Assembly: GCF_054482595.1 (NCBI RefSeq)
Contig: NZ_CM137008.1
Direction: 5' to 3' (one strand)
Length of the DNA: 64,000 bases
Below the pieces are notes generated by a model. It did no database searches. It saw nothing but the letters and a program-made list of their open reading frames with translations, and was not told the origin of the DNA. Position numbers and translations under genes: made by a program. Of the stretch, positions 12,928 to 47,815 are shown one piece after another; within the stretch, counting starts at the first letter, position 1; each line of letters opens with the position of its first letter.

Positions 12928-14468
12928 TGTCGCGCAATCTTCGTCATTGGGTGATTTCGCTGTTTATTGTGCTGGCCTGGGGAACCGGCTGGCTGATGCT
13001 GTGGACGCTCAGCTTTTATCTGACCAATAACGGTCAACAGGCGGTGTTGTTTCTCCCGCAGGGAGTTTATCTCGCCCTTGTTATTTTGCTCTCTCGCCGC
13101 TACTGGCCTGCGTTGGTGCTCCCCCCTTTGCTGATGATGTTCTGGCTCCATAGTGAACAGCTATTGAACGGTTATCTCATGCTGGCAACGCCGGTTATTA
13201 GCCTGTTTCCTGTCCTCCTTGCGCAAAACTTCTGGCACCGTTTTCCACTTTACTGGCAGCGTCTGACGTTGCTGTTAGCCACTGTCACGGCAGCTTCATT
13301 GTTGAATACCGCCCTGCTCTCCCCTTTTATGTCAGGCCCAATAATGCTGCCGGGTTTGACCTCATTTACCGGCGGCGTATTACTGACGCCGTTTGTCTAT
13401 CTTATCTTTGAGTTTCTGCGCCAGCAGCATCGCTACCAGCTCCTGGGACTCGATACGCATAATCCCCCCTTGCGTACCTCTTTAATCATCTGGTGTAGCC
13501 TGTTTTTTATTATTGGTATCGGCACTCAGATGGTGCTGTCACCTGAAATTGAACGTCTGCTGTTGATCGTGGTCTTTTTGCCCAATGTGGTGATGGCGTG
13601 GAAATTTGGCTGGCAAGGTGGCGTACTCTCCGGGCTTTTGGGCAGCATGATGATCACCATCGCCCGCCAGATTGGCGTGGGCTTTAGTAACCTGGTGGAG
13701 CTGGAGATTTTCCTCGCGACCCAGGCCTTGCTGGGAATTGGCCTGGGCATTGCCATCAGTCGCCAGCAACATCTGGCGCTAAACCTGCACCATTACCGAC
13801 AACGGCTGGAGGCCGAGCTGGCAGCGCGGCGGGCATTGGCGGAAAAGCTGATCCACACCGAGGAGGACACGCGAAAAAACCTGGCGCGAGAGCTGCACGA
13901 CGAAATCGGTCAGAACATCACCGCCATTCAGATCCAGTCGCAACTGGTGAAGCGGGCGCGTGATCCGGCGCAAATTCAATCCGCAGCCAGCCAAATCAAT
14001 GAGCTCGCCCGCCGCATTCATCTCTCCACCCGCCAATTGCTGCGCCAGTTGCGGCCTCCCGCGCTTGATGAACTGACATTTCGCGAAGCGTTGCTGCATC
14101 TGATTAATGAATTTGCCTTTAGTGAACGCGGCATTCATTGCCAGTTTGCCTATCAACTGAACTCCACACCAGAAAACGAAACGGTGCGCTTTACCTTGTA
14201 TCGGTTATTGCAGGAGTTGCTCAATAACATCTGTAAACACGCCGAAGCCAGCGAAGTGACGATTATCCTGCGCCAGCAGGGAGAGGTATTGCATCTGGAA
14301 GTCAGCGACAACGGTGTGGGGATCGCCAGCGGGAAAATGGCCGGATTTGGCATTCAGGGGATGCGTGAGCGCGTCAGCGCCCTGGGCGGCGACTTAACGC
14401 TCGAAAAACAGCACGGCACGCGGGTAATTGTTAACTTGCCCACATTTTTGCAACAAATCGCCGGATAA
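12927..14468 (+). CDS. Sensor histidine kinase, UhpB-like (polytopic membrane N-terminus, HisKA_3/HATPase C-terminus)
   Basis: 513 aa; hydrophobic N-terminal half; motifs ARELHDEIGQNITAI and GFGIQGMRERVSALGG as in UhpB. Confidence 0.85.
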   Translation: MSRNLRHWVISLFIVLAWGTGWLMLWTLSFYLTNNGQQAVLFLPQGVYLALVILLSRRYWPALVLPPLLMMFWLHSEQLLNGYLMLATPVISLFPVLLAQNFWHRFPLYWQRLTLLLATVTAASLLNTALLSPFMSGPIMLPGLTSFTGGVLLTPFVYLIFEFLRQQHRYQLLGLDTHNPPLRTSLIIWCSLFFIIGIGTQMVLSPEIERLLLIVVFLPNVVMAWKFGWQGGVLSGLLGSMMITIARQIGVGFSNLVELEIFLATQALLGIGLGIAISRQQHLALNLHHYRQRLEAELAARRALAEKLIHTEEDTRKNLARELHDEIGQNITAIQIQSQLVKRARDPAQIQSAASQINELARRIHLSTRQLLRQLRPPALDELTFREALLHLINEFAFSERGIHCQFAYQLNSTPENETVRFTLYRLLQELLNNICKHAEASEVTIILRQQGEVLHLEVSDNGVGIASGKMAGFGIQGMRERVSALGGDLTLEKQHGTRVIVNLPTFLQQIAG

Positions 14469-14540
14469 CCAGGAAAAAGTCTTAGGTATCCCGGATTTTC
14501 TCTCATCCCCTTTCACTTTCATTTTCATATAGTCAGCAAC

Positions 14541-15857
14541 ATGGAGACAACCATGCACGCGCGTTCAGCGAGAGAAATTGATCAATGCTACCGGACATTA
14601 CGTCCGCGATTGCTGATGTGCATGATTATTGGCTACGCCGCATTTTATCTGACGCGAAAAAGCGTGAATTACGTCCTTCCGGCGCTACAAACCGACCTCG
14701 GACTGGATAAAGGCGACATTGGCCTGCTGGGTTCGCTGTTTTATCTCAGTTACGGATTGTCGAAATTTACCGCCGGACTGTGGCATGACAGCGACGGACA
14801 ACGCGGTTTTATGGGCGTCGGCTTGTTCGCCACCGGGTTATTGAACGTGGTGTTTGCCTTTGGCGAATCACTTACGCTTCTGCTTGTGGTCTGGACACTG
14901 AACGGTTTTTTTCAGGGTTGGGGATGGCCACCGTGTGCCCGCTTGCTGACCCACTGGTACTCACGCAATGAGCGCGGTTTCTGGTGGGGCTGCTGGAATA
15001 TGTCGATCAACATTGGCGGAGCGATTATTCCGCTGATTAGCGCCTTTGCCGCCCACTGGTGGGGCTGGCAGGCCGCGATGCTGACACCGGGGATAATCAG
15101 CATGGCATTAGGGATCTGGTTAACACTACAACTCAAAGGCACGCCCCAGGAAGAGGGATTACCGACAGTTGGTCACTGGCGTCACGATCCGCTGGAGTTA
15201 CGTCAGGAACAACAAAGTCCGCCGATGGGGCTGTGGCAAATGTTGCGCACCACCATGCTGCAAAATCCGCTGATCTGGCTACTGGGCGTCTCTTATGTAC
15301 TGGTTTATGTGATCCGGATTGCGCTTAACGACTGGGGCAATATCTGGCTGACGGAAAGCCACGGTGTCAACCTGCTCAGCGCCAACGCCACGGTAATGCT
15401 GTTTGAAGTCGGCGGCTTACTCGGCGCGTTATTTGCCGGATGGGGATCGGATTTGCTGTTTAGCGGGCAACGGGCGCCAATGATTTTGCTGTTCACGCTG
15501 GGGTTGATGGTGTCGGTCGCCGCACTCTGGCTGGCGCCGGTTCATCACTACGCCCTGCTGGCAGTGTGCTTTTTTACCGTGGGCTTTTTCGTCTTTGGCC
15601 CGCAAATGCTGATTGGACTTGCGGCGGTGGAGTGTGGGCACAAAGCTGCGGCGGGTTCAATCACCGGATTTCTCGGCCTGTTCGCTTATCTCGGCGCGGC
15701 GCTGGCAGGCTGGCCGCTGTCGCTGGTCATCGAACGCTACGGCTGGCCAGGAATGTTCAGTTTACTCTCGGTCGCCGCAGTACTTATGGGTTTACTGCTG
15801 ATGCCGTTACTGATGGCGGGCATCACCACCACTCACGCTCGAAGGATAAAACAATGA
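14541..15857 (+). CDS. MFS organophosphate:phosphate antiporter-family protein, UhpC-like (putative sugar-phosphate sensor or transporter)
   Basis: 438-aa 12-TM-type ORF resembling UhpC/UhpT/GlpT; a better RBS (GGAGA) precedes the second ATG at 14553; stop overlaps the afuA start (ATGA). Confidence 0.8.
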   Translation: METTMHARSAREIDQCYRTLRPRLLMCMIIGYAAFYLTRKSVNYVLPALQTDLGLDKGDIGLLGSLFYLSYGLSKFTAGLWHDSDGQRGFMGVGLFATGLLNVVFAFGESLTLLLVVWTLNGFFQGWGWPPCARLLTHWYSRNERGFWWGCWNMSINIGGAIIPLISAFAAHWWGWQAAMLTPGIISMALGIWLTLQLKGTPQEEGLPTVGHWRHDPLELRQEQQSPPMGLWQMLRTTMLQNPLIWLLGVSYVLVYVIRIALNDWGNIWLTESHGVNLLSANATVMLFEVGGLLGALFAGWGSDLLFSGQRAPMILLFTLGLMVSVAALWLAPVHHYALLAVCFFTVGFFVFGPQMLIGLAAVECGHKAAAGSITGFLGLFAYLGAALAGWPLSLVIERYGWPGMFSLLSVAAVLMGLLLMPLLMAGITTTHARRIKQ

Positions 15858-16885
15858 AAATGACCCTTACCTCTACTCTGATTGCTTCTGCCGTTGCGCT
15901 GGCAACCTTAACGGGTGCCGCACAGGCGAAAGGCCGGCTGGTGGTCTATTGCAGCGCCACCAATGAAATGTGTGAGGCCGAAACCAAAGCGTTTGGCGAG
16001 AAATATGATGTGAAAACCTCGTTTATCCGCAACGGTTCCGGTAGCACCCTGGCAAAAGTCGATGCCGAAAAGAAAAACCCACAGGCTGACGTCTGGTACG
16101 GCGGCACCTTAGACCCGCAGTCGCAGGCCGGCGAGATGGGCCTGCTGCAGGCGTATAAATCCCCTAACCTTGAGCAGATCATGGAAAAATTCCGCGATCC
16201 GGCAAAAGTGAAAGGGAATCTGTCATCCGCCGTTTATGTGGGGATCCTCGGATTTGGCGTCAATACCGATCGGCTGAAAGAGAAAAACCTGCCGGTGCCG
16301 AAGTGCTGGAAAGATCTCACCAAACCGGAATATAAAGGCGAAATTCAAATTGCCGATCCGCAAAGTTCCGGGACAGCCTACACCGCGCTGGCTACCTTTG
16401 CGCAGCTGTGGGGGGAAGATCAGGCCTTTGATTATCTCAAACAACTTAACGCCAACGTCTCCCAGTACACCAAATCAGGCATTGCCCCGGCACGTAACGC
16501 CGCCCGCGGCGAAACGGCGATTGGTATTGGCTTCCTGCATGACTACTCGCTGGAAAAAGAACAGGGCGCGCCACTGGAGTTGATTTCCCCGTGTGAAGGT
16601 ACGGGCTACGAAATTGGCGGCGTCAGCATTCTGAAAGGCGCGCGCAACCTCGACAACGCCAAACTGTTTGTGGACTGGGTATTATCAAAAGAAGCACAGG
16701 AACTGGCGTGGAAGAAAGGGAAGTCTTATCAGATCCTGACCAATACCACCGCCGAAACGTCGCCAAATTCGCTGAAGCTCGACGACCTGAAATTAATCAA
16801 CTACGACATGGATAAATATGGTTCCACGGATGTTCGTAAGGCATTGATTAATAAATGGGTCAGCGAAGTGAAGATGGGTAAATAA
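15854..16885 (+). CDS. afuA: AfuA-type periplasmic substrate-binding protein of an AfuABC ABC importer
   Basis: 343 aa from the internal start MKMTLTSTLIASAVALATLTGAAQA (signal peptide); the track ORF is over-extended upstream into the MFS gene. Confidence 0.85.
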   Translation: MKMTLTSTLIASAVALATLTGAAQAKGRLVVYCSATNEMCEAETKAFGEKYDVKTSFIRNGSGSTLAKVDAEKKNPQADVWYGGTLDPQSQAGEMGLLQAYKSPNLEQIMEKFRDPAKVKGNLSSAVYVGILGFGVNTDRLKEKNLPVPKCWKDLTKPEYKGEIQIADPQSSGTAYTALATFAQLWGEDQAFDYLKQLNANVSQYTKSGIAPARNAARGETAIGIGFLHDYSLEKEQGAPLELISPCEGTGYEIGGVSILKGARNLDNAKLFVDWVLSKEAQELAWKKGKSYQILTNTTAETSPNSLKLDDLKLINYDMDKYGSTDVRKALINKWVSEVKMGK

Positions 16886-16953
16886 ACCCGCATTAGGCGT
16901 ATTTGCCGGGTGCAGCACAAACGCCTGCCCCGGCCAACCATACCGGAACTGCT

Positions 16954-19032
16954 ATGTCACAGACACTTGCACTCCATCCCGTGAAAAAGCGGGATGCGAT
17001 TTTCCTTTGGGTTTTGCTGGGCTGGCTGGCATTTGTCCTGTTGCCGAGCTGGAGCCTCGATTATGGCCTGCTGGAGTCCACGAGTGATGAGATCCTCGGG
17101 GCGTACGGCTGGTCGCATTTTAATATCAGCTGGCTGTGGTATTTACTCCCGAGCCTGTTGCTGGTCCGCCCGTTTAGTGAGGCCACGCGCGAACAACGTA
17201 GCCGTCATTATTTCGATGCCGGCTGGGCATTGCTCTGTATGGCGTTTATCGTCATCAGCGCCACCGTGGTTGGACGCGGTTTAGGCTACGCCGCCATCGT
17301 GCTGTTTGTCGAACTAGGCGCGATTATGACGCTGGCCTTAACCCGCCTCGAATGGCTGGGTGGCGACCGCTTCGTGATCGGCTCACTGATTGCGATTGTG
17401 GCGCTGATTGGCATTTTTATCGTCTGGCCGAGCATCGCCATTTTTATCCCGATGTTCACCAACGACGCGGGAGAGTTCGCCCCGCTGGCGTTTATGACCG
17501 TGCTCTCGCAGGCACATATTGTTCAGGTGATCGTCAACTCTATCGTCTTGTCGATAGCGGTGGGGATAGGCTGTACTTTCTTCGGCCTGGTGCTGGCGAT
17601 TTATACCACGCGCATCGCTAAACGCAGCGCCATTATTGGTCGCATCTTTTCCATTTTGCCCATCGTTACGCCACCGTTTGTGGTCGGCTTAGGCGTGACG
17701 CTCATGATGGGGCGCTCCGGCTATGTTACGGAATTTATGGTGGAGTGGTTTGGGCTGACCAACACCAACTGGCTGTACGGTTTTACCGGGATCTGGCTGG
17801 CACAGGTTCTGGCATTCACGCCAATGGCATTTATGATCCTCGACGGGGCCATTAAAACCATTCATCCCTCGCTGGAAGAGGCCTCCTACACCCTGCGCGC
17901 CAGCCGCTGGCAAACCTTTAACGGCGTGTTTGTGCCGTTGTTGAAGCCCGCGCTCGCCAATGCCTTTTTAATCGTCGTGGTACAGTCACTGGCTGATTTC
18001 AGTAACCCGCTGGTACTTGGCGGTAACTTCGACGTACTGGCGACGCAAATTTACTTCTATATTACCGGCTCGCAGCTGGATTATCAGGCCGCCAGCACCC
18101 TTGGCGCTTCCCTGCTGCTGTTCTCGCTGCTGGTGTTCTGCATACAGTATATGTGGATTGGTAAACGCTCTTACGTCACGGTTTCCGGCAAATCCTACCG
18201 TGGCGACGTCCAGCCGCTACCGGTCACCCTGGTGTGGAGCGTGGTCGCCATACTTGCGATATGGATTGCCTTTAACGCCCTGCTCTACGGCAGCATTTTC
18301 TACGGCAGCTTCACGGTGAACTGGGGCGTGGACTACACCCTGACGCTGGATAACTTTATCAAGCTATTTGGTCAGGGAATGAGCGACGGCGCGTGGCCTT
18401 CACTGCTGGATACCCTGCTCTACGCCGGGATTGCCGCTCCCATTACCGCTATCTTTGGCCTGCTCATCGCCTGGGTGGTGGTGCGTCAACAATTCAAAGG
18501 CAAAAAGACCATCGAGTTCACCACCATGCTGTGCTTTGCCGTACCGGGTACGGTGGCGGGCGTCTCGTATATTCTTGCCTTTAACAGCGCTCCGGTTTAT
18601 CTCACCGGAACGGCGGCAATTGTGATTATCTCGATGGTGATGCGTAACGTTCCGGTGGGTATTCGCGCCGGGATTGCAGGCCTGGGGCAGATCGACAAAT
18701 CGCTGGATGAAGCCTCACTCAGCCTGCGCGCGGGTTCCTTGCGAACCATAACCCACATTTTACTGCCGCTGCTGCGTCCGGCCATTCTCTCGGCCCTGAT
18801 CTACAGCTTTGTGCGGGCCATCACGACGGTCAGCGCCATCGTCTTTCTCGTCACGCCGGACACCCGCGTGGCAACCGCCTACATTCTTAACCGCGTTGAA
18901 GACGGCGAATATGGCGTAGCCATCGCCTATGGTTCGATTCTGATCGTGGTGATGCTGGCGATTATTTTCCTCTTTGACTGGCTGATCGGAGAAGCTCGTA
19001 TCTCCCGTTCTAAAGCCAAAAACCAGGCGTAA
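16954..19032 (+). CDS. afuB: AfuB-type ABC transporter permease (duplicated transmembrane domain)
   Basis: 692 aa from the ATG at 16954 (the track ORF starts at an upstream TTG); long polytopic protein. Confidence 0.85.
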
Positions 19033-19043
19033 TGGAGCGCACT

Positions 19044-20090
19044 ATGAGTCAGAAAAATTTTGTTGAACTGCGCAACGTCACTAAACGATTCGGCAGTAAT
19101 ACGGTTATCGACAATATCAATCTCACCATCCCACAAGGGCAAATGGTGACGCTGCTCGGTCCTTCCGGCTGTGGCAAAACCACCATTTTGCGTCTGGTTG
19201 CCGGGCTGGAAAAACCGAGCGAAGGGCAAATTTTTATTGATGGCGAAGATGTCACGCATCGTTCCATTCAACAGCGCGATATCTGCATGGTGTTTCAGTC
19301 ATACGCTCTGTTCCCGCATATGTCGCTGGGTGAAAACGTTGGCTACGGGCTGAAGATGCTTGGCGTGTCGCGTAGCGAAGTGAAACAGCGGGTGAAGGAG
19401 GCGCTGGCAATGGTGGATCTGGAAGGCTTCGAGGACCGCTATGTCGATCAGATTTCCGGTGGTCAGCAACAGCGTGTGGCACTGGCCCGCGCGTTGATCC
19501 TCAAGCCAAAGGTGCTGCTGTTTGATGAGCCGTTAAGTAACCTCGATGCCAACCTGCGCCGCAGTATGCGCGATAAGATCCGCGAGCTGCAAAAGCAGTT
19601 TAATATCACGTCGCTCTACGTCACTCACGATCAAAGTGAAGCTTTCGCGGTGTCCGACACTGTGCTGGTAATGAATAAAGGTCACATCATGCAGATTGGC
19701 TCACCGCAGGATCTCTATCGTCAGCCAGCCTCCCGATTTATGGCAAGTTTTATGGGCGACGCCAACCTGTTCCCGGCGAACTTTAGCGAAGAGTATGTCG
19801 ATATCTACGGTTATCGCCTGCCGCGCGCGGCGCATTTCCCGGCGCAAGGTAGCGGCACCGTCGGCGTTCGCCCGGAAGCCATCACCTTAAGCAATCACGG
19901 CGAAGAGAGTCAGCGTTGTGTTATTCGCCATGTCGCCTACATGGGGCCGCAGTACGAAGTGACCGTAGAGTGGCATGGACAGGAGATTTTATTACAAGTA
20001 AACGCCACCCGTTTACAGCCCGATATTGGTGAGCACTATTACCTCGAAATCCATCCTTACGGGATGTTTGTTTTAGCGGATGCGGCATAA
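19044..20090 (+). CDS. afuC: AfuC-type ABC transporter ATP-binding protein
   Basis: 348 aa from [12 protein letters not shown] with GGAG RBS; Walker [10 protein letters not shown], signature LSGGQQQRV. Confidence 0.88.

Positions 20091-24844: not shown

Positions 24845-25320
<476 letters not shown>

Positions 25321-26360: not shown

Positions 26361-26364
<4 letters not shown>
25351..26364 (-). CDS. mhpE: MhpE, 4-hydroxy-2-oxovalerate aldolase
   Basis: 337-aa ORF. Confidence 0.95.
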
Positions 26365-28126
<1,762 letters not shown>

Positions 28127-32759: not shown

Positions 32760-33536
32760 ATGAAAATTACGCAAATTCGTAATGCCACCCAAATTATCCA
32801 ATACGCTGGCAAAACATTTCTTATCGACCCGTTACTCGCGCCTAAAGGAAGTTATCCGGGTTTTGCCGGAACGGCACGCGCAGAAATCCGCAATCCAACG
32901 GTAGAATTACCGTGCGATTTAACAACGTTACTCAACGTTGACGCCCTAATCGTGACTCATTTACATGAAGATCACTGGGACGAAACAGCCTCCCGCGTCG
33001 TCCCTAAAGATAAACTGATTTATGTGCAAAATGAGCAAGATGCTGAATCACTGCATAAACAAGGATTTACACATCTTACCGTACTTACCGATGAGACTAA
33101 ATTTGGCGATATTACTCTGCATAAAACGACAGGGCAGCACGGCTCCGATCGCACCTATGCCGACCCGGCGATGGCGAAGCGTTTAGGCGCAGCCTGCGGC
33201 GTTGTTTTCCAGCACCCGACAGAGAAAACGCTCTATCTGGCTGGCGATACCCTCTGGCGTGACGACGTCGAGGCTACAATGCTAACTTTCCAACCAGAAG
33301 TGGTTGTGTTGAATGCCGGATTTGCGCATGTTCTGGGGCATGGCGCGATAATTATGGGAGCAGAAGATATTCTCAAAACACATTTTACCCTGCCAGAAGC
33401 GCAAATTGTCGCGACACATATGGAGGCCGTAAACCACTGTTTGCTGACGCGTGATGCGCTCAAGGAATACGCCAGAGATAATCAAATTATCGAATTTGTG
33501 AACGTACCAGAAGATGGTGAAACGTTGACATTCTAA
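32760..33536 (+). CDS. MBL-fold metallo-hydrolase (function unknown)
   Basis: 258 aa from MKITQIRNATQ with GGAG RBS; metal-binding motif THLHEDHWDE. Confidence 0.75.
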   Translation: MKITQIRNATQIIQYAGKTFLIDPLLAPKGSYPGFAGTARAEIRNPTVELPCDLTTLLNVDALIVTHLHEDHWDETASRVVPKDKLIYVQNEQDAESLHKQGFTHLTVLTDETKFGDITLHKTTGQHGSDRTYADPAMAKRLGAACGVVFQHPTEKTLYLAGDTLWRDDVEATMLTFQPEVVVLNAGFAHVLGHGAIIMGAEDILKTHFTLPEAQIVATHMEAVNHCLLTRDALKEYARDNQIIEFVNVPEDGETLTF

Positions 33537-33555
33537 TTCGGAGATAAAGAGTGTT

Positions 33556-34509
33556 ATGCGCCCGCTAACTGTTGCCATTATCGCCGTTGCCGGTTTTAGT
33601 CCTTTTCACCTTTCCGTACCGTTTATCGTATTTAGCGAAAAAATGGCGGAGAAAAAACACTTTCACGTAATTATCTGCGCTGAAAAGCCGGGAAACGTGG
33701 ACTCTGCCGATGGGTTTTCCGTAACCGCCACCCATGACTATACCGCAGTCATCCAGGCGGATATTGTGATAATTCCTTACTGGGGAACCATTACACAAAA
33801 ACCGCCACAAAAACTGCTGGAAGCCTTAACGACCGCACGGGATAACGGCGCACAGATTGTCGGGCTTTGCCTGGGCACGTTTGTGCTCGGCTATGCAGGT
33901 TTACTGAAAAATAAGCGTGCCGCCACGCACTGGGAGTTCGAGCGTGAATTTCAGGCACGTTTTCCACAAACACATCTGGATATTAACGCGTTGTACGTAG
34001 ACGATGACGGCATTATTACCTCTGCCGGTACTGCCGCGGCGCTGGATTGCTGTTTGTATATTGTTCGGCAACATTTTGGCAGCGACTATGCTAACCATAT
34101 TGCCCGACGGATGGTCGTACCGCCATATCGCACTGGCGGTCAGGCGCAGTTTATTGAGCAACCAGTGCCGAAAAATACCCATGATGAACGCATTAATCTC
34201 CTGCTGGATTACCTGCGGCAAAACATTGCGCAACAGCATGATCTCGACTCGCTGGCGCAGCGAGTAATGATGAGTCGCCGCACATTAACTCGCCATTTTA
34301 TGAAAGCGACCGGTTCGAGTATCGCCGAATGGCTTATTACTGAACGCTTACGCCGTAGCCAGGAACTGTTGGGATCCAGTCAATTGCCCGTTGAGCGGAT
34401 AGCAGCTGAGGTGGGTTTTCTCTCACCTGTGACCTGGCGTCAGCATTTTAAATCTCACTTCGGCGTCAGCCCCGCCGAATGGCGCAAAACCTTTCGCGGT
34501 ATGGCATGA
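33556..34509 (+). CDS. GlxA-family transcriptional regulator (DJ-1/PfpI-like N-terminal domain plus AraC-type HTH)
   Basis: 317-aa ORF; C-terminal AraC HTH; its last codons overlap the lacI promoter. Confidence 0.75.
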   Translation: MRPLTVAIIAVAGFSPFHLSVPFIVFSEKMAEKKHFHVIICAEKPGNVDSADGFSVTATHDYTAVIQADIVIIPYWGTITQKPPQKLLEALTTARDNGAQIVGLCLGTFVLGYAGLLKNKRAATHWEFEREFQARFPQTHLDINALYVDDDGIITSAGTAAALDCCLYIVRQHFGSDYANHIARRMVVPPYRTGGQAQFIEQPVPKNTHDERINLLLDYLRQNIAQQHDLDSLAQRVMMSRRTLTRHFMKATGSSIAEWLITERLRRSQELLGSSQLPVERIAAEVGFLSPVTWRQHFKSHFGVSPAEWRKTFRGMA

Positions 34510-43366: not shown

Positions 43367-44266
43367 ATGCTCTCTCGACATATCAATTATTTTCTTGCCG
43401 TGGCTGAACATGGCAGCTTCACCCGTGCCGCCAGTGCGTTGCACGTCTCCCAGCCTGCGCTTTCCCAGCAGATTCGCCAGTTAGAGGAGAGTTTAGGCGT
43501 GCCGCTGTTTGACCGTAGCGGGCGAACGATTCGTCTCACTGATGCAGGAGAAGTCTGGCGACAGTACGCCAGCCGGGCGTTACAGGAACTGGGAGCGGGT
43601 AAACGGGCGATTCATGATGTTGCCGATTTGACGAGAGGATCGCTGCGTATCGCCGTCACCCCCACCTTTACGAGCTACTTTATCGGCCCCTTAATGGCGG
43701 ATTTCTATGCGCGCTACCCCGGCATCACGCTCCAGCTACAGGAAATGTCGCAGGAGAAAATCGAAGATCTGCTTTGCCGCGACGAGTTGGACGTTGGGAT
43801 TGCCTTCGCGCCTGTGCATTCGCCGGAGCTGGAGGCAATTCCTTTACTGACAGAAAGTTTAGCGTTAGTCGTGGCGCAACATCATCCGCTGGCCGCCCAT
43901 GAACAGATGGCGTTGAGTCGCTTGCATGATGAAAAACTGGTCCTGCTCAGCGCGGAATTTGCCACCAGAGAGCAAATTGACCACTACTGCGAGAAAGCGG
44001 GGCTGCATCCACAGGTGGTAATTGAGGCGAACTCAATTAGCGCGGTTCTGGAGCTGATTCGCCGCACTTCCCTTTCCACATTGTTACCAGCAGCGATTGC
44101 CACACAACATGACGGGCTTAAAGCTATTTCTCTTGCCCCGCCACTACTGGAGAGAACGGCGGTTTTGTTGCGGCGGAAAAATAGCTGGCAGACAGCCGCC
44201 GCGAAGGCATTTTTGCACATGGCGTTGGAGGAATGCGCGGATGTTGGCGGGAATGAATCACGGTAG
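43367..44266 (+). CDS. cynR: CynR, LysR-family activator of the cyn operon
   Basis: 299 aa from the internal start [22 protein letters not shown] (LysR HTH); divergent from cynT. Confidence 0.93.
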
Positions 44267-44294
44267 CCGCTGACACAGGTCTGCGGCTGGAATT

Positions 44295-44370
44295 GCCTGA
44301 TGCGCTACGCTTATCAGGCCTACGAGTTCAGTGTAAGGCGTTCACGCCGCATCCGGCATAAACTACGCTC
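44295..44370. repeat. REP element pair between cynR and codA
   Basis: GCCTGATGCGCTACGCTTATCAGGCCTAC ... CGCCGCATCCGGCATAAAC; approximate bounds. Confidence 0.8.
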
Positions 44371-44396
44371 GCTTTGTCAACACACAGCCCAGCCGA

Positions 44397-45680
44397 TCAC
44401 CGTTTGTAATCGATGGCTTCTGGCTGCTCCAGATATACGGTGGTTTGTGCCGGTTGTGTGCTGGCGATCACCTTACCGCCACGTACAGAATAACGTACCG
44501 GAACCTGACGGCGCAGCGCATCAAATCCATTTTCAGCCGGCAGGATAATCAGGTTCGCGCTGTTTCCGGCGGCAATGCCGTAATCCTGCAAATTCAACGT
44601 CCTGGCGCTGTGGTGGGTGATTAAATTCAGGCCATCGTTAATCTGCCCATAGCCCATCAGCTGGCAAACATGCAGCCCCATATGCAGCACTTGCAGCATA
44701 TTCGCCGTTCCCAGCGGATACCACGGATCGAAGACATCATCGTGACCAAAGCAGACGTTAATGCCGGACTCCAGCATCTCTTTAACGCGCGTGATGCCGC
44801 GACGTTTTGGATACGTATCGAAACGTCCTTGCAGATGAATATTGACCAGCGGGTTGGCGACAAAGTTAATACCGGACATTTTCAGCAAGCGGAACAGGCG
44901 TGAGGTATACGCCCCGTTATAGGAGTGCATTGCCGTGGTGTGGCTGGCGGTGACTCGCGCGCCCATGCCTTCACGGTGCGCCAGGGCAGCAACGGTTTCG
45001 ACAAAGCGCGACTGCTCGTCATCGATCTCATCACAGTGAACGTCGATGAGACGGTCGTATTTTTGCGCCAGGGCGAAGGTTTTATGCAGCGACTCCACGC
45101 CGTATTCACGGGTAAATTCAAAATGCGGAATCGCCCCCACTACATCTGCCCCTAAGCGTAACGCCTCTTCCAGCAACGCTTCACCGTTGGGATACGACAA
45201 AATCCCTTCCTGAGGGAAGGCGACGATTTGCAGATCAATCCACGGCGCGACTTCCTGCTTCACTTCCAGCATTGCTTTCAGCGCAGTTAGCGTTGCATCC
45301 GAAACATCGACATGGGTACGCACATGCTGAATGCCGTTGGCAATCTGCCATTTCAGCGTTTGCCAGGCGCGTTGTTTCACATCGTCATGGGTTAATAACG
45401 CTTTGCGCTCGGCCCAGCGTTCAATGCCTTCAAACAGCGTGCCGGACTGATTCCAGTTCGGTTGTCCGGCGGTTTGCGTGGTGTCCAGGTGAATATGCGG
45501 CTCCACAAATGGCGGTATAACTAAACCTTGTTCGGCATCCAGGCTGTTTTCAGTTATGGGCATCACGCCGGATTGCGCATCAATGGCGCTGATTTTTCCG
45601 TCCTGCAGATGAATCTGCCACTGCCCCTCTTTGCCTGGTAACCGGGCGTTAATAATTGTTTGTAAAGCGTTATTCGACAC
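44397..45680 (-). CDS. codA: CodA, cytosine deaminase
   Basis: 427 codons from GTG ([16 protein letters not shown]...); start overlaps the codB 3' end by 11 nt. Confidence 0.93.
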
Positions 45681-46929
45681 TGTTAGCCTCCACATGCGTC
45701 ATTGCTGCTGTCGTTTTACGATTCAAAATCGGGTTAAGGATCAGATAGCTCAGCGCGCCACCTAATACCGCGTTGACCGGAACAATTCCCGGTAACCAGT
45801 GGCCTGCAGCAATCCCCAAGGCGACCGCCAGAATCGCCACCCAATTGACACTCATCATACGCGTGGTCGCAAAGTGCTCATAGCGGCGACGGTTCATCAG
45901 ATAGTCGGCAATGATCACGCCACCCACTGGAGGAATAGCTGCCGAAAGGAAGGTCAACCAGCCGACAAAATTGTTATACAGCCATAATGCGCAGACCGTA
46001 CCGATAATACCGTTGATTACCGAAAGGGTTTTGCTCGACATCCCGGTAATGTTGGCGAAACCTAAACCCGACGCATAGAGCGCGTTATCGTTGGTGGTCC
46101 AGATATTTAGCCCCAGCACCACAATCGCAGGCAACAGCAGGCCCTGAGCAATCATCACATCAGAGATATCCGCCAACCCCAGTGCCGCCGCTCCCGCTGC
46201 ACCGAAAATAAACATCAACGAGTTGCCGAGGAAAAAGGCCACCATCGCCACCAGCACCGCCAGTTTGGCATTGCGACCAAACCGGACAAAGTCAGCGGTG
46301 AGCGTACCCGCACTGATAAATGACCCCACAACCAGCGCCAGCGCGACATTGAAATCTAACGGTTGTGCGGGAACGACCGCTTTTAATGCGTCCAGGCCGC
46401 CCATGCCGTTAACAGCCAGCCACACGGAATAACCACCAAGGCAGGCGATAGCCGGAACCGCAATCACCGAAAGAACCGTCAGCGCCGAAATGCCAAAGAA
46501 GACGGTGACGGTCATCAGTAAACCGGAAACGGCAATCAGCAAATTAATATCCAGCCCGGTTGCCTTGCCCACCGGAATGGCAAACATCGCCACACCGACG
46601 CCAAACCAGCCAACCTGGGTGCCGCCCAGCAGCAGTGAAGGCAGCCATGAGCCTTTAACACCAAACGAGAAGCGAGCAAGAAGATGGGTGGTCAGGCCGG
46701 TTTTTGCACCAATGTAACCGAGAAATGAAGTGTAAATACCGAGGAGAAGATTACCGATGAGAACTGCGAGGAAGAAATCATGATAGCTAAGACCGGTTCC
46801 GAGAGTGCCGCCGGTCCACATACTGGCGGAAAAGAAGGTTAATCCCAGCATGACGAACGTCAATGCCAATACCCCTTTCCGCGCCGACTGCGGGACTGGC
46901 CCCTGGCTAAAGTTGTTATCTTGCGACAC
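45670..46929 (-). CDS. codB: CodB, cytosine permease (NCS1 family)
   Basis: 419-aa hydrophobic ORF. Confidence 0.95.
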
Positions 46930-47084
46930 GAAATTCCCCCTTTTTGCTGTTTGAAACCCAAAAAATCCGCCGCATTCTATTCATCTGAAGATAAAAAGCA
47001 ATCGTTTTCGTGGGGAAATATATTTTTTATATGAATGAGTGCAAAAAGGTGGGGGAAAAATTATCGGTGTAAAAACAGTGGGTA

Positions 47085-47815
47085 GGCATAATAAGACGCG
47101 GTAAGCGTCGCATCAGGCATCGGCGCATGGTGTCGGATGCGGCGCGAGCGCCTTATCCGACCTGCGGTTCAGGCCTGTAGGCATGATAAGACGCGCCTGC
47201 GTCGCATCAGGCATCTGCGCATGGTGTCGGATGCGGCGCGAACGCCTTATCCGACCTGCGGTTCAGGCCTGTAGGCATGATAAGACGCGCCTGCGTCGCA
47301 TCAGGCATCGGCGCACGGTGTCGGATGCGCCGCGAGCGCCTTATCCGACCTACGGTTCAGGCCTGTAGGTATGATAAGACGCGCCTGCGTCGCATCAGGC
47401 ACTGAGCACGGTGTCGGATGCGGCGCGAGCGCCTTATCCGACCTACGGTTCAGGCCTGTAGGCATGATAAGACGCATCAGCGTCGCATCAGGCATCGGCA
47501 CACGGTGTCGGATGCGGTGCGAGCGCCTTATCCGACCTACGGTTCAGGCCTGTAGGCATGATAAGACGCATCAGCGTCGCATCAGGCATCGGCACACGGT
47601 GTCGGATGCGGCGCGAGCGCCTTATCCGACCTACGGTTCAGGCCTGTAGGTATGATAAGACGCATCAGCGTCGCATCAGGCACTGAGCACGGTGTCGGAT
47701 GCGGTGCGAGCGCCTTATCCGACCTACGGTTCAGGCCTGTAGGCATGATAAGACGCGCCAGCGTCGCATCAGGCATCTGCGCACAACTGTCGGATGCGCC
47801 ACGCGACGCATCCGA
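47085..47815. repeat. Large REP/BIME array, about 7-8 tandem units of roughly 94 bp
   Basis: Repeating GTCGGATGCGGCGCGAGCGCCTTATCCGACCTACGGTTCAGGCCTGTAGGCATGATAAGACGCRYCAGCGTCGCATCAGGCATCGGCRCAYGGT with minor variants; approximate bounds. Confidence 0.9.

Follow-up and report, generated by a model that had tools for sequence, protein, structure and literature searches.

The codBA genes of Escherichia coli K-12 (b0336 codB and b0337 codA) are the closest described counterpart of the junction considered here; the distance between them is tabulated as −11 (PMC10666635 Table S2). Coupling has been described for classes of shorter overlap: ATGA (−4), TAATG or TGATG (−1) and NTGNNTGA (−8) (Huber et al. 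2019, 2023; PMC12548453). Short overlaps of this kind are the geometry associated with coupling by termination–reinitiation (PMC10666635, PMC12548453), and a stop/start distance of −8 to +6/+10 has been taken as predictive of reinitiation, the efficiency at −8 being already below that of shorter overlaps (Huber et al., PMC10666635). Overlaps of −10 to −60 nt are ∼4-fold rarer than short ones, and the −8/−11/−14 phase is several-fold commoner among long overlaps (Huber et al., PMC10666635). Another relative in geometry is the phage lysis start. Both this start and that of codA lie upstream of the stop of the preceding gene, and a terminating ribosome would need to go backwards to reinitiate at either. 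However, the lysis start depends on termination and has a longer overlap (34 nt in fr), whereas codA is preceded by a strong Shine-Dalgarno motif and can initiate unaided in vitro. The GTG start of codA was reportedly noted already in the description of the codBA operon by Danielsen et al. 1992 (Mol Microbiol 6:1335).

The DNA analysed here is a stretch of 64,000 nt (the window), in which codB and codA are the same genes, in the same order and with the same GTG start as in K-12; the K-12 junction, printed in published supplements as CAGCAGCAATGACGCATGTGGAGGCTAACAGTGTCGAATAACGC, is identical to that of the window. An initial annotation of this DNA had claimed that a GTG-started codA overlaps the 3′ end of codB by 11 nt. 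This is exact, both by reading of the sequence and by RefSeq coordinates, and the gene names that it used are correct; it mentioned neither the GTG start of codB itself nor the in-frame ATG that precedes the codA GTG by 5 codons (at 45695). The codB–codA overlap is ordinary, already annotated and experimentally confirmed, with nothing new in kind. The features at the junction are as follows.

47017..47045, minus strand: sigma-70-like promoter match ∼88 nt upstream of the codB GTG, from a consensus scan; not significant alone
45670..46929, minus strand: codB, cytosine permease CDS, 419 aa; intact ORF, RefSeq annotation in strain XH990
45693..45695, minus strand: in-frame ATG without a Shine-Dalgarno motif, rejected as an alternative codA start; it would give a 26-nt overlap
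45687..45691, minus strand: Shine-Dalgarno motif GGAGG for codA, 6 nt upstream of the GTG, from duplex energy
45670..45680, minus strand: codB/codA overlap, 11 nt, GTGTCGAATAA on the coding strand, read from the sequence
44397..45680, minus strand: codA, cytosine/isoguanine deaminase CDS, 427 aa; intact ORF, RefSeq annotation in XH990

By reading of the sequence, codB runs from a GTG at 46929..46927 to a TAA stop at 45672..45670, and codA starts with the GTG at 45680..45678. The codA reading frame is +1 relative to that of codB. On the minus strand the junction reads, in the codB frame, ...ACG CAT GTG GAG GCT AAC AGT GTC GAA TAA and, in the codA frame from its start, GTG TCG AAT AAC GCT TTA CAA; the overlap therefore encodes the C-terminal residues of CodB (..S-V-E-stop) together with the N-terminal residues of CodA (M-S-N-N..).

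The identity of the locus is clear. Strain XH990 is collinear with positions 6621–64000 of the window (2 mismatches), and its RefSeq/PGAP annotation gives identical codA and codB coordinates. A query with the 3.4-kb locus returned 100% DNA identity to several E. coli chromosomes annotated cynR/codA/codB, and the flanking genes cynR and prpE reproduce the E. coli arrangement. The gene order is that of codBA, with an NCS1-type cytosine permease gene directly 5′ of an amidohydrolase-type cytosine deaminase gene on the same strand. CodA matches the cytosine deaminase in PDB with an E-value of 4e-292 and is ∼98–99% identical to the crystallised K-12 enzyme, with substitutions in the alignment of K for E and Q for L (LPGKEGQW versus LPGEEGLW) and of R for H (AHREG versus AHHEG).

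A sigma-70 consensus scan of 44200..47200 gave one match, the one upstream of codB, versus 2.3 expected in shuffled sequences, which is not significant on its own; the scan gave no sigma-70-like match between codB and codA. The two genes are reportedly co-transcribed, and for this we rely on the published operon description.

Several lines of evidence place the codA start. The duplex energy of the GTG site with the 3′ end of 16S rRNA is −9.3 kcal/mol, and duplex scores equal to or better than this were obtained at 0.45% of 2,000 random positions in the window. The GGAGG motif sits within the codB codons GTG-GAG-GCT. Apart from the codA GTG, the ATG 5 codons upstream is the one start codon in frame between the preceding stop and codon 40; the next 39 codons downstream contain no ATG, GTG or TTG, and a downstream start of codA was rejected for this reason. 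Two PDB chains of cytosine deaminase, 427 aa and 426 aa long, both align from S2 (SNNALQ), one residue past the GTG codon, and the 427-aa chain has one additional residue ahead of S2. N-terminomics of K-12 detected two N-terminal peptides of CodA (P25524), one beginning at position 1 (13 letters) and one at position 2 (12 letters), both assigned to the GTG at NC_000913:356171 (PMC13245402 and its supplement). At the same start site INRI-seq recorded 160–242 CPM in 5/5 replicates and Ribo-RET a value of 17.9; the K-12 codB start was detected by both methods as well (Ribo-RET, 503.6), and both genes are absent from the table of non-annotated start sites (PMC9825163 Tables S2 and S3). We conclude that translation of codA starts at the GTG at 45680, served by the GGAGG motif in the last codons of codB. 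The initial annotation had named a downstream start backed by homology as the observation that would overturn its reading. There is no such start for 39 codons, and homology and experiment alike back the GTG. Full-text searching of the literature gave no usable mention of the GTG start of codA; a passage search of PMC2602762 turned up only primers and a reference.

To compare the junction across relatives, contigs representing one genome per species were scanned with degenerate DNA for the CodA motif FVEPHIHLD, so that the sample consists of orthologues carrying this exact motif. The scan gave at least 120 loci, of which at least 43 have a codB-like gene immediately ahead of codA and a resolvable junction. 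Among the matches listed, the −11 distance is found in eight of the nine Enterobacterales codB–codA loci (E. coli, Hafnia paralvei, Proteus penneri, Superficieibacter electus, Citrobacter youngae, Citrobacter sp. FP75, Edwardsiella ictaluri and Budvicia diplopodorum), and it is kept in these loci although the flanking sequence diverges; in the ninth, Citrobacter werkmanii, the overlap is 14 nt, i.e. one extra codon. Each of the nine listed loci has a Shine-Dalgarno motif 6–7 nt upstream of the codA start, and seven keep GGAG. The start codon itself varies: in the nine loci listed, GTG occurs only in E. coli and Hafnia, the others having ATG. Where Enterobacterales codA has no codB upstream, the start is at the equivalent codon in Serratia, Pantoea, Enterobacter, Mangrovibacter and Acerihabitans (GTG in two species of Serratia and in Acerihabitans, ATG in Pantoea, Enterobacter and Mangrovibacter).

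Outside this order the spacing is diverse. The codB–codA overlap is 7 nt in Aeromonas schubertii, 4 nt (ATGA) in three Bacillaceae and a predicted 23 nt in Bacillus testis, while the genes are 9–50 nt apart in Pasteurellaceae and, among the matches listed, either 12–15 nt (14 loci) or 50–270 nt (8 loci) apart in Pseudomonas.

Of 5,426 complete E. coli genomes, 5,224 have the 81-nt junction at ≥90% identity, and in the five alleles that we aligned neither the Shine-Dalgarno motif nor the GTG varies. In strain Z1323HEC0423 (NZ_CP148334.1 3678622-3678816) a 6-nt deletion, CGAATA, removes the codB stop and CodA residues 2–3; codB becomes 5 codons longer and the overlap 26 nt, with the same codA GTG kept in RefSeq. 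The deletion may be genuine or may stem from faulty assembly. In Morganella psychrotolerans the junction is GGAGATGACCCGTGCTTAA, also given as GTGCTTAA, where codA starts with GTG and overlaps codB by 8 nt. Here the alignments of codB and of codA are each broken into two pieces that differ in frame, pointing to pseudogenes or to frameshifts of the assembly, and because of the apparent frameshifts in both genes of that assembly the locus was left out of the Enterobacterales tally.

The overlap states observed, −11, −14, −26 and, at the probably defective Morganella locus, −8, all belong to the −8/−11/−14 reading phase. Among these Enterobacterales the position of the codA start is inherited and shifts only by whole codons (−8, −11, −14, −26).

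The initial annotation had gone further and read the overlaps as a sign of translational coupling throughout. The overlap geometry is indeed present; the step from there to coupling exceeds what a sequence can show. Measured by stop/start distance, the eight junctions of 1–8 nt fall within the −8 to +6/+10 range, while codBA shares the reading phase of the −8 class (the −8, −11, −14 series) but at −11 lies just outside the range.

The account that we favour is one of partial coupling. The overlap falls where constraint on CodB is poor, in its C-terminal tail, and where CodA is variable, in its first residues, and so has little cost. A ribosome terminating at the codB stop would sit over the codA start site, and part of CodA synthesis probably stems from ribosomes just off codB, either by reinitiation 8 nt upstream of the stop or because they keep the site unfolded; the remainder would arise from independent, motif-driven initiation, of which the codA site is capable by itself. 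Coupling is not obligatory, since the codA site initiates in vitro without codB and has its own Shine-Dalgarno motif, and a contribution of coupling is likely. That this contribution is a measurable one we consider slightly better than an even proposition, while in the account as a whole (a known codBA junction, a GTG start and initiation coupled in part) we have high confidence.

The experimental data bear on this in two ways. In INRI-seq a synthetic fragment whose upstream part is just 30 nt long supports initiation at the codA site in vitro (PMC9825163), and codB translation was therefore not involved in that initiation. The mean in vitro signals of the two sites are similar (codB ∼235 versus codA ∼205 CPM), whereas in vivo under retapamulin, with elongation from upstream having run off, codB stands at 503.6 versus 17.9 for codA, a 28-fold difference (PMC9825163 Table S2). 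This contrast between in vitro and in vivo initiation is a hint of coupling, but it could equally reflect lower abundance or decay of the 3′ part of the mRNA, or structure in the full-length mRNA.

The strongest competing explanation is that codA initiation is wholly independent of codB: the motif recruits free 30S subunits, and the overlap is a neutral by-product of genome compaction or of the position of the stop, with no regulatory role. In its favour are the in vitro level of the codA site alone, which is about that of the codB site (PMC9825163), the strength of the codA Shine-Dalgarno motif and the folding of the junction. The minimum free energy of the junction RNA is −22.3 kcal/mol versus −27.7 for shuffles (z = +1.43), so the junction is not unusually structured. 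Folding reveals a small weak stem in which the GTG pairs with an upstream GACGC and the Shine-Dalgarno motif is left in the loop; no hairpin occluding the codA start and stronger than in shuffles was found. The stem was rejected as evidence for coupling enforced by structure.

The protein products point the same way. Huber et al. list codB/codA, like tauC/tauD, mhpD/mhpF and mhpF/mhpE, as ‘CMPLX not’, and tauB/tauC as ‘yes’ (PMC10666635). The enrichment for subunits of a complex, which is not a requirement of coupled pairs, does not extend to codB/codA; as CodB and CodA form no complex, the usual stoichiometry argument for coupling is inapplicable to them. Independence also fits the 2–270 nt that separate the same gene pair in other lineages (12–15 nt or at least 50 nt in Pseudomonas, 9–50 nt in Pasteurellaceae), as well as the one strain in which the 6-nt deletion yields a 26-nt overlap with both genes annotated as intact. 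However, a ribosome terminating at the codB TAA covers both the motif and the GTG of codA, which makes full independence of the two events impossible; the −11 distance is kept in eight of nine Enterobacterales loci, among the matches listed, despite their diverging flanks; and the 28-fold difference under retapamulin is seen for two sites that are equal in vitro (PMC9825163). We regard wholly independent initiation as a serious contender, with the balance somewhat against it. Our search of the literature found no experiment on codB-dependent codA translation.

A stronger form of coupling is also conceivable, in which codA initiation in vivo comes largely from ribosomes that finish codB at its stop and then step back 8 nt to the GTG, the conserved −11 distance and the non-ATG start together setting a fixed, low CodA:CodB ratio. 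We think this rather unlikely. If true, such backward reinitiation would explain why codA equals codB in vitro and is 28-fold weaker under retapamulin.

The initial annotation also listed other overlaps of 1–8 nt in the window, and all eight were confirmed, each joining two intact ORFs: six span 4 nt, one spans 1 nt and one 8 nt.

9429..9432, minus strand: tauC/tauD ATGA overlap, 4 nt; K-12 distance −4
10253..10256, minus strand: tauB/tauC ATGA overlap, 4 nt; K-12 distance −4
12927, plus strand: response regulator/MASE1 histidine kinase TAATG overlap, 1 nt
15854..15857, plus strand: uhpC-like MFS/afuA-like ABC substrate-binding protein ATGA overlap, 4 nt
26361..26364, minus strand: mhpF/mhpE ATGA overlap, 4 nt; K-12 distance −4
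27308..27311, minus strand: mhpD/mhpF ATGA overlap, 4 nt; K-12 distance −4
60291..60294, minus strand: ABC permease/ABC permease ATGA overlap, 4 nt; XH990 annotation
61255..61262, minus strand: sugar ABC ATPase/permease ATGGCTGA overlap, 8 nt; XH990 annotation

These are standard bacterial operon junctions of the ATGA, TAATG and ATGNNTGA types and fall exactly into the motif classes of short overlap named above. The same caution applies to them as to codA: all eight keep recognisable Shine-Dalgarno motifs, and coupling at them may likewise be partial. The Shine-Dalgarno energy of the overlapped genes averages −7.5 kcal/mol versus −5.5 for other genes. From the XH990 annotation we took 38 same-strand neighbour pairs, checking each gene as an intact ORF; tight junctions (−8 to +6 nt), counting mhpA/mhpB with its spacing of +1 alongside the eight overlaps, make up nine of the 38 (24%). 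Genome-wide in E. coli K-12 the figure is 707 of 2,987 pairs, also 24% (Huber et al., PMC10666635). As the two shares are equal, the density of tight junctions in the window is typical and not enriched.

That the overlaps are artefacts of annotation, the true starts of the downstream genes lying further downstream and the genes not overlapping at all, is very improbable. Start codons are estimated to be misannotated in 5–12% of prokaryotic genes (a statement cited in PMC9825163), the Shine-Dalgarno motif at the regulator/kinase junction is weak (−5.5 kcal/mol), and for the kinase, the afuA-like protein and the two ABC permeases, which have no K-12 counterpart, the starts rest on RefSeq annotation and Shine-Dalgarno motifs. 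Against this, recognisable motifs stand at all overlapped starts, the −4 distances of the tau and mhp junctions are identical in the K-12 reference annotation, and codA offers no downstream start within 39 codons, its conserved block IINARL setting in at residue 9.

The remaining alternative, a codA beginning at the ATG at 45695 (a 432-aa protein with a 26-nt overlap, the GTG being an internal valine codon), has in its favour that a mechanical ORF list runs out to this ATG, that ATG is in general the better start codon and that Hafnia shares it, but it is effectively refuted and its probability is close to nil: the site has no Shine-Dalgarno motif (+0.3 kcal/mol, GGAGG overlapping the ATG itself); among the matches listed it occurs only in E. 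coli and Hafnia, being missing in Proteus, Citrobacter, Edwardsiella, Budvicia, Superficieibacter and all orthologues without codB upstream; E. coli strain UTME-7 has GTG in its place; the 13-letter peptide carries Met at the GTG position, which is possible only by initiation there, and the CodA rows retrieved from the N-terminomics table include no peptide from the upstream ATG (PMC13245402); and the INRI-seq fragment includes this ATG, yet no alternative start site was called (PMC9825163).

The neighbourhood has several features of its own. The codB–prpE spacer is 893 nt long in the window versus 329 nt in K-12 (Huber et al. Table S2, PMC10666635); the excess is due to a tandem array at 47082..47798 with 7.6 copies of a 94-nt unit (93% matches). 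The unit contains a REP-like palindromic sequence of the GCCGGATAAGGCG type, and it is this repeat that is translated in the mechanical ORFs at 47183..47649. A second array, 24867..25309, with 4.4 copies of a 101-nt REP-like unit (95% matches), occupies part of the 577-nt mhpE–mhpT spacer, whose length is the same in K-12.

The autotransporter adhesin gene ehaB is split into fragments 2622..5327 and 6619..6975 by a 1.33-kb IS2 element (5291..6620), which the otherwise near-identical strain XH990 lacks. The two ORFs of the element match IS2 TnpA (E-value 4e-83) and IS2 TnpB (E-value 4e-214) and overlap by 43 nt (6165..6207), more than codB and codA do; we take this overlap to be the site of the IS2 programmed frameshift.

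The gene yahL (57144..57959) has an internal stop codon by ORF check and is a pseudogene in the XH990 annotation. Between tauA and frmR, a block at 12298..20090 carries genes for the response regulator, the MASE1 histidine kinase, a uhpC-like MFS protein and an afuABC-like ABC transporter; three of the overlaps named in the initial annotation are attributed to it. Another block, 32760..34509, between mhpR and lacI, carries genes for an MBL-fold hydrolase and a GlxA-family regulator. Both blocks are presumably absent from K-12 at these positions.

The significance of the junction beyond correct annotation is very small. The codA start is confirmed as the true one, which is relevant to users of codA in 5-fluorocytosine counter-selection or prodrug work. 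The only addition made here is the comparative picture, with the −11 distance conserved in Enterobacterales, ATG as the commoner start codon of codA and GTG as the state of E. coli and Hafnia. Should backward reinitiation prove true, codBA would be a natural test case for it, as a chromosomal operon encoding two proteins that form no complex.
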